Assembly (NCBI GenBank): GCA_947571135.1
Contig: CANOWY010000003.1
Coordinates: 11,333-75,332 of the forward strand
Direction of reading: 5' to 3'
Origin: an uncultured Mycoplasmatota bacterium
GTDB taxonomy: Bacteria; Bacillota_I; Bacilli_A; RF39; UBA660
Length of the DNA stretch: 64,000 nt
Shown here: positions 33,470-38,578 of the stretch, one piece after another
Layout: every line of letters begins with the position of its first letter
Position numbering within the stretch: position 1 is the first letter of the stretch
The notes under the pieces: generated by a model
Databases searched by the model: none
The model's input: only the letters and a program-made list of their open reading frames with translations
What the model was told of the DNA's origin: nothing
Translations under genes and position numbers: made by a program

Positions 33470-33546
33470 GTCCCGGTAGCTCAGTTGGATAGAGCATACG
33501 CCTTCTAAGCGTACGGTCATGTGTTCGAATCACATCCGGGACACCA
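33470..33546 (+). tRNA. tRNA-Arg (anticodon TCT), CCA encoded
   Basis: Cloverleaf folded by hand: acceptor GTCCCGG/CCGGGAC, D-arm TAGCTCAGTTGGATAGAGCA, anticodon stem TACGC/GCGTA with loop cTTCTAa, T-arm ATGTG-TTCGAAT-CACAT, and 3' ACCA. Confidence 0.85.
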
Positions 33547-33623: not shown

Positions 33624-34562
33624 TTATACTTGTTCTCCTGATTCTATTATTTCCTCTGTTACATATATTTTACTGACTTCTTTTTTTAATCTTTTTACCA
33701 AAGTAAATTTATAAGGAATTTCTTCTATTTCTTCACGAACATTGACTAAGAATTCTTCTCTTTCCTCTTTATCTAAATTATTAAGCAAAGTAGAAAGATA
33801 AATACTTCTTAAAAAAGCAATTTGTTTTGTTCTACATAATCTTTCAGATATTAAACAATTTACTTGTTGAATAGCAAGATTAGTATTATATTCGTTTATT
33901 GTTTTCCATAACATATTTTTATCAAATACTTCTTCATAAATGATTTCTGTACTATATAATTCATAAGGAAAATGAAGTATTCTATCTTTTATATAAATTT
34001 GTTCCAATAATGTATTTAAATACGTGATTTCATAAGGAATACGTGTCACTTTTTCTTTTAATATTTTTTCACGTGGATTTTGACATGTAGAAATATTTAG
34101 AAAACGGAGACAATTTTCTAATTCTAAATCTTGAGAGATTGTATCTAAAATATAGTCTTCTTCTGAAGCATAAAATTTATTAATAGTTGATTTTTCTTGT
34201 AATAGTACTTCCCCTTCCTCATCTTTTATTGTTGAAGTAATAGGATTTTCTCTAACCAACTTTTTTAATTTTTCAGAAATTCTTAATAAAGCAAGGGATT
34301 GGTTATTTAAAACAATATAATTTTCTAATACACTATCATTGGATAATCCATAACATGTTAAAAATTTAAAATAGATGTCTTGCAAATGCGAAGCATAATC
34401 TTTTTGTAATGTTTCTAAAAGTTTTTCTTCTTTTTGGGTTAAATATTCTAAACAAGTAAATAGTGCTTCTTTTTCTGTTTTATCTTCCTCTTTTTGAATC
34501 CTACGATATAAATTATAGATTTGATGTGCATTTTCTATTAAAAATTCTATGATATTATGCAA
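33624..34562 (-). CDS. Hypothetical acidic cytoplasmic protein (312 aa, TTG start), driven by a poly-G-containing promoter
   Basis: Long ORF with no TM and no family recognised. Start codon is TTG at 34560-34562, preceded by an aggggtg RBS. A 7/8-bp hairpin plus U-run follows the stop, in the 33596-33630 area. Confidence 0.55.
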   Translation of the reverse strand: MHNIIEFLIENAHQIYNLYRRIQKEEDKTEKEALFTCLEYLTQKEEKLLETLQKDYASHLQDIYFKFLTCYGLSNDSVLENYIVLNNQSLALLRISEKLKKLVRENPITSTIKDEEGEVLLQEKSTINKFYASEEDYILDTISQDLELENCLRFLNISTCQNPREKILKEKVTRIPYEITYLNTLLEQIYIKDRILHFPYELYSTEIIYEEVFDKNMLWKTINEYNTNLAIQQVNCLISERLCRTKQIAFLRSIYLSTLLNNLDKEEREEFLVNVREEIEEIPYKFTLVKRLKKEVSKIYVTEEIIESGEQV

Positions 34563-34597: not shown

Positions 34598-34625
34598 ATT
34601 ATAACCCCCCCCCGATCGTTGTCAA
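34598..34625 (-). promoter_or_regulatory. Consensus sigma-A promoter with a G9 homopolymer in the spacer (TTGACA-acgatcGGGGGGGGGt-TATAAT); candidate phase-variable promoter
   Basis: Reverse complement of 34598-34625 reads TTGACAacgatcgggggggggtTATAAT. The spacer is 16 nt and 9 of them are G. It sits about 35 nt upstream of the TTG start of the 312-aa gene. Confidence 0.6.
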
Positions 34626-34691: not shown

Positions 34692-34730
34692 GAAAGTAGC
34701 AAATTATTCTTTAATAGTTTTGCTACTTTC
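34692..34730 (-). terminator. 12-bp perfect stem hairpin enclosing the stop codon of the 346-aa gene (terminator-like, weak U-tract)
   Basis: gaaagtagcaaa (34692-34703) pairs with tttgctactttc (34719-34730) around a 15-nt loop that contains the TAA stop. It is followed by UUUAGUU on the minus strand. Confidence 0.4.
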
Positions 34731-35744
34731 ATTTTTAAATTTCCACGGATTATCTTTTTCTCCTGTCCCTGATACTTTTAACCCAGATTTAAGAACAACA
34801 ATAGGTCGAATATAAGCGCTACTTGTAACTTCGGCATCAGATTCCATGAGTCTAATCCCTGAATATTCACTCCCATAACTATTTGAAACTTGTAGATACA
34901 AAGACACATTACGATATGTAGTGGCAGAAGTATGTTCATTTGTATAGGTACGAGTCGATAAAAAATAATTCCCTGTTTCGTTAGTAAAAACCTTATTACT
35001 GGCAAGCGTTCCTAAAGCATTTTGAAGCAAGGAAACATCTGTTTTATACGCTCTATCTCCACATCCTTGTGGCTCCAATGCCCCATCTAACCAATTTTTA
35101 TCATAAGTTCTATGATTCCAACAATTATTATTAATACCAGATAGACTATTATATATAATTAGAGACTGATTGCTATACCCTACATGTCTAGAACCATCTG
35201 TATATAAATCATTTTCATATTGTTTTGCAATATCCTGAATTGTTTGTACATAATATTTGTATCCATGTACACCAGTAAAATATATAGCAGTACTTGATAC
35301 ATATTCCGATACCATTTCGATTTTTCCATCATTTGTTTTTCTTATAACTCTCCACAAATTTAATTCGCTAGGATGAATAGTTTGATTTGTACTATAGCCT
35401 GTATAACTGTTTGGTACTGTATATGTTGTACTTTCAGGAGTCATTTCCACATAATCTCCTACTTCAACTACAGTTGTAAGTTCTACATCGTTATAATGAG
35501 GTCTAAAAACAGGGATTCTTCCCTTTAAGACATTAAATTCCTTTTTCTCTTCATAAAAAGCAAATGTTTTATAAAGTGTGATTCCACCTACTACCAGAAG
35601 TATTCCTATTATGCTTCCTACTAAGACTTTCTTTTGTTTTTGATTTTTATTAAACTTCTTAAATTCACCTGGGTTACTTTCTAATATACCCCCCCCCAGG
35701 CGTGTTCCTGAAGTTGGGAGGTTTCTTTTCTTCATTTTTTTCAT
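34704..35744 (-). CDS. Membrane-anchored surface protein of unknown function (346 aa) with a G9 tract in codons 17-19
   Basis: N-terminus MKKMKKRNLPTSGTRLGGGILESNPGEFKK (cytoplasmic), TM VLVGSIIGILLVVGGITL, then about 290 aa extracellular Tyr/Ser/Thr/Asn-rich domain with 4 Cys. Strong RBS ggaggag. C9 at 35689-35697 on the plus strand. Confidence 0.6.
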   Translation of the reverse strand: MKKMKKRNLPTSGTRLGGGILESNPGEFKKFNKNQKQKKVLVGSIIGILLVVGGITLYKTFAFYEEKKEFNVLKGRIPVFRPHYNDVELTTVVEVGDYVEMTPESTTYTVPNSYTGYSTNQTIHPSELNLWRVIRKTNDGKIEMVSEYVSSTAIYFTGVHGYKYYVQTIQDIAKQYENDLYTDGSRHVGYSNQSLIIYNSLSGINNNCWNHRTYDKNWLDGALEPQGCGDRAYKTDVSLLQNALGTLASNKVFTNETGNYFLSTRTYTNEHTSATTYRNVSLYLQVSNSYGSEYSGIRLMESDAEVTSSAYIRPIVVLKSGLKVSGTGEKDNPWKFKNESSKTIKE

Positions 35745-35944
35745 TTATATCTCCTCCATTTATTATATACTTATCATATCATATTTTTTTACTATTGTGA
35801 CAAATAAATAAATTTCCACGAAAATCCAAAAATGTAGTTTTCTTATGATATATTATAAAAATATTCTGTATTTCATAAAAAAAATGAACAAAATAAATTT
35901 AGATTATCAAATTTTTTACGTCTTTAAAATAATTTTATAACCGC

Positions 35945-37924: not shown

Positions 37925-38578
37925 TTATTTTTTTAACAATTCTCTTTGGAATTTAGTAAAATTAAATTCTTCATAATTAGATAATACTTGGGTTATAAAA
38001 TTTATTAAATCGTTATACATATCGATTTGTTCTAGTAAAGGTACTTCTTGATTAACAATAGACATTTCAATTCTTTTAAAATAAGCATCATAATTTTCTT
38101 GCTCTTTTATATAAGTATCCATTGTAATTTCTATCAATGATTCTAATATACTAAAAACGTCCTTTATTAAATTTCCCTTTTTATAGTAATCTATCAATAT
38201 GCTAACTAAGGCTTCCACTAAAATAAGATAAGAATCTAACATATTTTCTTTTTGTTTATAGGCAAGTATTTTTCTATTAAATCCATTTGGTAATTTTTTA
38301 TAAGGCATTCTCAATATCATTTCTGAAATTGGTCGGCGTAATTGCTCTTTTTCCATTGCATTTTCTATTTTTTCATTTTGTTGGTACATATCCTCTAAGA
38401 ACACGTCCATTTCTAAGATTTTTTTATTTCTTATCGTGGTTGTTTTCTCTGTTCTAGTTGCAAAAAATAAGTATCTTATTTTCTTTAAAATACTTTTGTA
38501 TATTTTTCTAAAACTTAAATTTGCATTTGCTTGTATTAATTCTTCTTTATATTTTAAAAATAGTGCTTCATAATCCAT
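37925..38578 (-). CDS. Hypothetical protein (217 aa)
   Basis: Long ORF with AT-rich-genome codon usage. No family recognised. Confidence 0.45.
   Translation of the reverse strand: MDYEALFLKYKEELIQANANLSFRKIYKSILKKIRYLFFATRTEKTTTIRNKKILEMDVFLEDMYQQNEKIENAMEKEQLRRPISEMILRMPYKKLPNGFNRKILAYKQKENMLDSYLILVEALVSILIDYYKKGNLIKDVFSILESLIEITMDTYIKEQENYDAYFKRIEMSIVNQEVPLLEQIDMYNDLINFITQVLSNYEEFNFTKFQRELLKK

Follow-up and report, generated by a model that had tools for sequence, protein, structure and literature searches.

A probable poly-G phase-variation switch in the leader of a surface-protein gene from uncultured gut Bacilli

Several bacterial surface proteins are switched by short repeats whose length changes. 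Neisseria PilC has a poly-G tract in its signal-peptide-coding region, and Opa has CTCTT repeats in its leader-coding region. Among mycoplasmas, a poly-A tract lies in the promoter spacer of the Vlp genes of M. hyorhinis and another in the 5' coding region of the Vaa gene of M. hominis. Poly-G tracts also occur upstream of the tpr genes of Treponema pallidum, and poly-C/G switches in the promoter spacers of Neisseria opc and porA and of Bordetella fim. Here we analyze a run of nine G (G9) near the 5' end of a gene for a 346-amino-acid (aa) protein in an uncultured Mycoplasmatota bacterium (GTDB lineage Bacilli_A; RF39; UBA660). The DNA is a stretch of 64,000 nucleotides (nt), hereafter the window: contig CANOWY010000003.1 of assembly GCA_947571135.1, positions 11,333 to 75,332; coordinates below are counted from its first letter. 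Our reading, to which we give a probability of about 0.8, is that this run is a hypermutable simple sequence repeat (SSR) acting as a translational ON/OFF phase-variation switch of a surface protein, with a transcriptional switch next door.

The Neisseria genes resemble this locus in having the repeat within the 5' leader portion of an adhesin gene, where a frameshift aborts the protein before export, and Opa also in being a multigene family whose copies switch independently, as we propose here. They differ in that their products are outer-membrane or pilus-associated with a cleaved signal peptide, and in the pentamer repeat of Opa; neither PilC nor Opa has a sequence or fold relationship to the family of the window. 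Vlp and Vaa come from low-G+C relatives of the Bacilli, belong to multigene surface families and show both placements of the homopolymer, but the homopolymer is poly-A and the proteins are lipoproteins with repetitive C-termini, in contrast to the signal-anchored, lectin-like proteins described here. In the tpr, opc, porA and fim systems tract length modulates the promoter of a surface gene, which makes them the model for the second tract of the window (34605-34613) and for the promoter-type members of the family; they are transcriptional only, and involve unrelated organisms and proteins.

The poly-G/C phasome of Campylobacter jejuni offers a further comparison. Its genome has about 30% G+C, and nearly all G/C runs of at least 7 nt are switches (PMC6321876). 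In Campylobacter this length is the operational cut-off for phase-variable genes, and all tracts of at least 8 nt vary; translational and transcriptional phase variation are both defined in that work (PMC6321876). As here, the runs are intragenic or in promoters, they target surface structures, and lengths of G8-G13 differ between isolates. Unlike here, the host is a Gram-negative epsilonproteobacterium, and the targets are mostly glycosyltransferases and modification enzymes of capsule, lipooligosaccharide and flagella, from many unrelated families. The window locus belongs to a single paralogous family of membrane-anchored proteins in Bacilli-class metagenome-assembled genomes (MAGs), with tracts at the leader position or in the promoter spacer. 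The mechanism is thus textbook slipped-strand phase variation and is not new, whereas the protein family and the host lineage appear to be undescribed: a literature search, whose limited coverage is no proof of novelty, returned no description of the family or of SSR switches in these taxa.

The coding tract, its reading frame and its rarity

The features on which the argument rests are the following.

34704..35744, minus strand: gene for the 346-aa protein, an open reading frame (ORF) with a predicted cytoplasmic leader (residues 1-39), signal-anchor helix and extracellular domain, from a large family that has no Pfam model
35689..35697, minus strand: coding poly-G tract (G9, read as C9 on the plus strand), proposed translational switch, from the sequence and the frame read
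35751..35757, minus strand: Shine-Dalgarno sequence GGAGGAG, 6 nt 5' of the ATG at 35744, by direct reading
34605..34613, minus strand: second poly-G tract (G9, C9 on the plus strand) in the promoter spacer of the 312-aa gene, proposed transcriptional switch
34598..34625, minus strand: perfect sigma-70-type promoter TTGACA-N16-TATAAT (12/12), the best match in the region
33624..34562, minus strand: gene for a 312-aa all-helical orphan protein, predicted to be transcribed from the G-tract promoter

Reading the codons across the coding tract (ACG CGC CTG GGG GGG GGT ATA TTA GAA, that is T R L G G G I L E) places the G9 in codons 16-19 of the gene, as the third base of Leu16 CTG followed by Gly17-19 (GGG GGG GGt). 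A first-pass annotation, made from the sequence alone, had read Gly-Gly-Gly in the N-terminus at this point, and the codons agree. Since the Shine-Dalgarno sequence sets the start codon upstream of the tract, this is a G/C run longer than 7-8 nt, in frame and downstream of the true start.

We then replaced the tract in silico with tracts of other lengths. A full-length product was obtained only with G9 (346 aa) or G12 (347 aa), whereas G7, G8, G10 and G11 gave products of 22, 20, 23 and 21 aa. Gain or loss of a single G thus truncates the product by frameshift, ahead of the membrane segment, as the first-pass annotation had proposed: both wrong frames contain stops at most 5 codons past the tract, before the membrane helix. 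Its further claim that no start could rescue the exported part also holds. Inspection of the leader found no start codon for the gene in either alternative upstream frame, and no in-frame ATG, GTG or TTG occurs between the tract and Val99/Met101, which lie past the helix.

Such a run stands out in this genome. A census of G/C runs on the plus strand of the 64-kb window gave 15 C5, one G5 and two C9, with no run of 6-8 nt, so the two C9 are its only G/C runs above 5 nt; this bears out the earlier remark that the window holds no other run of 7 or more. By chance, 0.01-0.02 C9 runs would be expected. CTG accounts for 1.6% of Leu codons and GGG for 15.6% of Gly codons, giving a probability of about 4e-4 for CTG GGG GGG at a Leu-Gly-Gly; drift is therefore an unlikely source of the run. 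We also considered the tract and the TATATT that follows it as a promoter, and dropped this candidate, for which the best -35 element (TTCAGG) matches at 3 of 6 positions.

Under the mechanism that we propose, replication slippage (slipped-strand mispairing) would make the run gain or lose one G. With G9 or G12, the ATG at 35744 would be in frame with the leader, the signal-anchor helix and an ectodomain of putative C-type-lectin-like fold, which the cell would display on its surface. At other tract lengths, translation would end once 20-23 residues had been made, short of the helix; the surface protein would be missing until a further slip restored the frame. The neighbouring G9/G10 run would act on transcription through the spacing between the -35 and -10 elements (16 or 17 nt). 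We infer from this scheme the reversibility and the switching rate of the tract and the loss of the protein in OFF variants; the selective agent would be host immunity, phage or niche binding.

Tract length in contigs of the same species

Through exact-protein look-ups we recovered metagenome and MAG contigs of the same species, 98.7-100% identical to the window. The tracts had the following lengths.

Coding tract, G9: the window, L001, L002, L084 and L094
Coding tract, G8: L003
Coding tract, G7: L004
Coding tract, second allele, G10: L098 (ENA ERZ14864679)
Coding tract, second allele, G8: L099 (NCBI GCA_948705835.1)
Promoter tract, G9: the window, L001, L002 and L094
Promoter tract, G10: L003, L004, L092, L095, L098, L100-L105 and L107

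The sequence downstream of the tract in L099 makes G7 or G10 its ON length, and L107 carries an orthologue of the 312-aa gene at 51% identity. An invariant tract, named in the first-pass annotation as evidence against a switch, is thus not what these contigs contain: G7, G8 and G9 occur within the species, and the second allele has G8 or G10. The flanks are conserved between these close strains, some of which are represented by contigs of low coverage. Over 2.46 kb, L003 has 2 substitutions relative to the window, and both of its tracts are of another length. Across all conspecific contigs, length differed in 6 of 13 comparisons of G tracts and in 2 of 115 comparisons of A/T runs of at least 7 nt (Fisher p = 8e-6). 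From the OFF alleles, gene callers predict a 246-aa remnant that begins with Met101 (P0001, P0128).

The second tract was also as first described, in the spacer of a promoter with a 12/12 match. The layout is TTGACA-acgatc-G9-t-TATAAT, so that the repeat between -35 and -10 sets the spacer length; G9 gives 16 nt, G10 gives 17 nt, and both forms are observed. On consensus spacing, G10, the commoner allele, would give the canonical 17-nt spacer. Substitutions in near-identical contigs cluster at 34614-34625, in the -35 hexamer and the adjoining spacer, with the forms TTGACCacgatc (L001), TTGACAccgatc (L002) and TTGACAacaatc (L004); in L001 and L002 the substitution is the sole mismatch of the entire contig. 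In another contig (L096:1-40) the promoter poly-G is the exact point of fusion with an Illumina adapter (ACACTCTTTCCCTACACGACGCTCTTCCGATC), an artefact of assembly at this homopolymer.

Seven contigs span both tracts. In these, a coding tract in the ON state (G9) always occurs with promoter G9, and a coding tract in the OFF state (G7, G8 or G10) always with promoter G10. This association may reflect clonal linkage. The first-pass annotation had seen in the two tracts a co-evolved contingency locus. That the locus is a contingency locus agrees with every property of an SSR switch that can be tested on sequence; that the tracts co-evolved stays a conjecture, because the seven two-tract contigs are not independent.

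Could the differences in length be sequencing or assembly errors, in a constitutive gene where Gly-Gly-Gly serves as a functional linker? Many leaders of the family conserve the GGG residues in the protein, and the variant contigs have a coverage of 1.7-5x, both of which this explanation would predict. But a Gly3 in this genome would mostly use GGA or GGT, and would rarely follow a Leu encoded by CTG. As the comparison above indicates, differences are very rare at A/T runs of 7-9 nt in these contigs, and the promoter tract has reproducible lengths, with at least 10 independent contigs at G10 and 4 at G9. Tracts of G8-G11 recur in paralogues from unrelated studies. Finally, GGG is replaced by GRG or ERG in some homologues, which implies that the Gly3 residues themselves are dispensable. 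Taken together, we regard errors around a fixed linker as a very improbable explanation.

Other points do weigh against a phase-variation switch. The variant contigs are thinly covered (3.7x for L003, 1.7x for L004 and 5x for L098), so homopolymer miscalls are possible, and the four G9/G9 contigs may be a single clone from one study. The lengths come from assembled contigs and not from reads, and they show neither heterogeneity within a population nor reversibility. L098 (42-70) carries, besides G10, a G-to-T substitution by which Glu22 becomes TAA when read in the ON frame (ILE to IL*), so that the gene is doubly inactivated in that strain, and some strains may simply be losing it. Logan contigs break at the coding tract, which co-occurring strain single-nucleotide polymorphisms (SNPs) can explain too.

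These breaks, in twelve contigs from several runs, fall at two places: L085-L090 have their 3' ends 4 G into the coding tract, and L092, L095, L100-L102 and L104 have their 5' ends 9 nt past it and pass through promoter G10. We considered them as a sign of tract heterogeneity within samples and set this aside; since strain SNPs adjoin the breaks and a simple k=31 model does not fit them, they were not counted as evidence. A search of JGI metagenome contigs for exact matches to the leader together with the tract found none.

The same device across the protein family

A word-seeded search found 146 homologues of the 346-aa protein, and a family profile matched 2,972 clusters at 50% identity, 1,378 of them at E <=1e-10; no Pfam model covers the domain in any protein of the family. 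Scanning species-representative genomes gave 79 loci, with up to at least 13 copies per MAG. The MAGs are labelled almost exclusively as Bacilli, Tenericutes or Erysipelotrichaceae, apart from some mislabelled as "Muribaculaceae", and come from gut samples of mouse, human, rabbit and other hosts.

Poly-G tracts recur in this family, at the same position as in the window. When the loci are oriented by their family gene, each of the 29 G/C runs of at least 7 nt outside the window species has its G on the coding strand, with no case of C. The commonest assembled length is G10 (15 of 37 runs). Thirteen runs (G8-G11) fall within the part of a family gene that encodes the N-terminus; the majority come immediately after a conserved MKKxxxNLPT(S/R)xxxL leader and ahead of (I/T/Y)LE. 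In at least 12 other cases the tract has the promoter placement, with a run of G7-G13 flanked by a TTGAC-type -35 element and a TATAAT-type -10 element. One of these runs, a G13 between TTGACT and TATAAT (L083:2617-2629), precedes a gene starting MRRKGFTLIELLAV, which has a prepilin motif; a pilin-type gene would thus be under the same kind of promoter switch. We found only one G run of at least 7 nt in a gene outside the family, a G7 (L039:7884-7890) in what we take, from its translation, to be a phosphoketolase-like gene.

Among the ten coding-type paralogues with a recognisable Shine-Dalgarno-ATG leader, nine are assembled out of frame. Eight of the nine have 365-484 open codons downstream, which argues against pseudogenes and looks like reversible switches; the ninth, the second copy in L005, has only 35 open codons before the contig ends. 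Comparison with homologues, suggested in the first-pass annotation, thus gave pure G8-G11 tracts, mostly out of frame, together with a few interrupted ones. The closest homologue from another species (P0002, 46% identity) has CTG GGG AGG GGG ACA, a G10 broken by a single A, and at the tract position P0105 reads LERG. Judging by their sequence, these interrupted tracts would lock the frame ON.

Some copies may have two productive phases with alternative N-termini, as their sequences suggest. In a subfamily represented by L038 (4003-4160) and L063 (4003-4186), whose proteins start with MGGGLLE, the ATG is formed by "aAT" and the first G of the tract; G10 gives MGGGLLE... and G9 gives MKKIKKTNGGGLLE..., and the MKKIKKTNGGG form is found as P0120. 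The alternative-frame leader of P0114 may be a further case. The window gene has CTG at the ATG-forming position, and has one ON phase only. In L063 an N-gap is followed by a second leader copy with G11.

The abundance of assembled OFF frames also fits an explanation in which the DNA does not switch: RNA polymerase or the ribosome would slip on G9-G11, the alleles that look OFF would be leaky, and tract length would tune the amount of protein, as a rheostat. Standing expression by slippage would preserve the open frames of the out-of-frame paralogues just as well, and the prevalence of G10 among assembled lengths is in line with it. Productive transcriptional slippage is best documented for A/T runs. 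Against this explanation, DNA length truly differs among near-identical strains, the tract also occurs in non-coding promoter spacers, where no frame can be restored, and interrupted in-frame alleles exist. We consider it improbable as the main effect of the tract, and note that slippage on RNA and switching of DNA can coexist.

The OFF paralogues could also be genes in decay, in which the tract is a mutational hotspot of a dispensable gene and no reversibility is selected. The combination of G10 and a nonsense codon in L098, a second frameshift at a T run (in KTYAFFEEK) in L038 and the OFF state of most paralogues are what decay would produce. Yet decay would interrupt or delete the runs and scatter stops, whereas pure runs are kept at the same position in many paralogues and species despite the codon bias, the coding-strand bias is complete (29 G, 0 C), and long open frames persist past the OFF tracts. 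We therefore think decay very unlikely to account for the tract, and favour a phase-variation switch.

A wider proposal is that the gut Bacilli of this lineage have a poly-G phasome, in which a lectin-like surface family is switched copy by copy through tracts in the leader or in the promoter spacer. We put it forward tentatively, and rate it as doubtful at the scale of a whole lineage.

The proteins, the leader and the surroundings of the locus

Further features of the locus are listed here.

35556..35627, minus strand: predicted membrane-spanning signal anchor, about residues 40-63, VLVGSIIGILLVVGGITLYKTFAF, from the sequence and an AlphaFold helix at residues 33-72
34707..35480, minus strand: predicted extracellular domain, about residues 89-346, with conserved INPSELNLWRVI and RPIV motifs and a putative C-type-lectin-like fold
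35716..35721, minus strand: CCTCCC within the leader codons for Asn-Leu-Pro-Thr (AAC CTC CCA ACT), from DNA conservation among paralogues
35773..35801, minus strand: candidate promoter of the 346-aa gene, GTCACA-17-TATGAT, a consensus match only (9/12)
33470-33546: tRNA-Arg(TCT)

The AlphaFold model of the 346-aa protein (pLDDT 77, from an alignment of 31 sequences) has three parts: disordered residues 1-31, a single long helix at 33-72 and a compact alpha/beta ectodomain. Its sequence predicts a location at the cell surface. We tentatively assign the ectodomain a C-type-lectin-like fold, on moderate evidence, because neither structure nor sequence searches of the PDB gave a match: Foldseek of the model returned nothing below E 0.5, and the family profile had 0 hits among PDB sequences. 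Neither the 346-aa nor the 312-aa protein had a significant match in Pfam, NCBIfam, PHROGs or PADLOC.

The immunoglobulin A peptidase (IgAse) of Thomasclavelia ramosa (PDB 9QA6) has an enlarged, atypical C-type-lectin-like N-terminal domain, of unknown function and dispensable for catalysis (PMC12237041). This domain would be the part that the ectodomain of the window resembles. The two differ in that the IgAse has no sequence similarity to the window family detectable by the profile search or by Foldseek, and in that it is a sortase-anchored multidomain metallopeptidase, while the window protein has no peptidase domain. Longer proteins of the family join the domain to Listeria-Bacteroides repeats, Big_2, ricin-type lectin and fn3 modules, combinations that would fit an extracellular binding role.

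The leader itself is not that of a type IV pilin or pseudopilin. Such leaders (PF07963, N_methyl) end in a Gly followed by F/M-T-L-I/L-E and an adjoining helix; in the 346-aa protein ...LGGG-ILESNPGEFKKFNKNQKQKK intervenes before the helix and PF07963 does not match, and we rejected this candidate. Five homologues do join the domain to true prepilin N-termini (GFTLIE, PF07963), so the ectodomain is shared with pilin-type proteins even though the window gene is not a pilin.

A second element of the leader is conserved at the DNA level. At 35711-35721 (minus strand, AACCTCCCAAC) the nucleotides are identical in 10 of 11 leader-type paralogues from several MAGs, and include a CTC codon that accounts for only 1.7% of Leu codons. 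In the RNA, CCUCCC is complementary to the GGAGG of the Shine-Dalgarno sequence, which lies 30 nt upstream, as well as to six of the G in the tract. RNAalifold pairs CCUCCC with the G tract in the leader alignment; every pair is invariant, and the alignment fold has no covariation for this pairing. The fold of the single sequence around the tract was not better than that of shuffled sequences (z -0.76). CCUCCC could pair with the Shine-Dalgarno sequence or with the tract, and tract length might also tune the initiation of translation. A small hairpin beside the tract (CAGG/CCTG or CAGA/TCTG) was rejected, having only 4 base pairs in two states that are out of register in the alignment.

The 312-aa protein had only 6 homologues among 5.8 billion sequences, and its AlphaFold model is poor (pLDDT 52) and unsuited to a fold search. 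In relatives, its gene always adjoins a gene of the family. In L098, L100, L102 and L103, which represent a second strain or species, the 312-aa orthologue is followed by a gene with a metallo-beta-lactamase fold (PF23023, Anti-Pycsar Apyc1), coaE and a LysR regulator; the window has tRNA-Arg and GerM instead, so synteny breaks right after the two-gene unit.

We rejected a prophage or defence-island context, given a neighbourhood of rpmF, yceD, a tRNA and sporulation genes; the last, which flank the locus, are GerM/Germane, SpoIIIAH and a GerE-type regulator. The minus strand encodes 44 of the 50 long ORFs in the window, and the plus strand contains 11,415 C against 7,296 G, which places both G tracts on the G-rich coding strand, presumably the leading strand. 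L087 and L089 have a 14-bp deletion at about 38195-38208, inside the ORF 37925..38578 (minus strand), that splits a hypothetical 217-aa gene into ORFs of 127 and 65 aa.

Phase variation by slippage is known mainly from a few cultured pathogens, and the tracts described here would extend it to uncultured, low-G+C, spore-forming gut Bacilli. There, the device would control a very large surface family that lacks a Pfam model and has an ectodomain reminiscent of the enigmatic N-terminal domain found in a gut IgA peptidase. If the wider phasome proposal were true, it would extend to thousands of sequence clusters of membrane-anchored or pilin-borne proteins, at up to at least 13 copies per MAG. Gene callers systematically mis-annotate genes of the family, as 246-aa remnants or with "MGGG..." starts, and the assembled frame of such a gene in a MAG would be a snapshot of a population and not a fixed property. 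Tract lengths in metagenomic reads could report the selection that immunity, phage or niche exert on the surface of these commensals, without cultivation.

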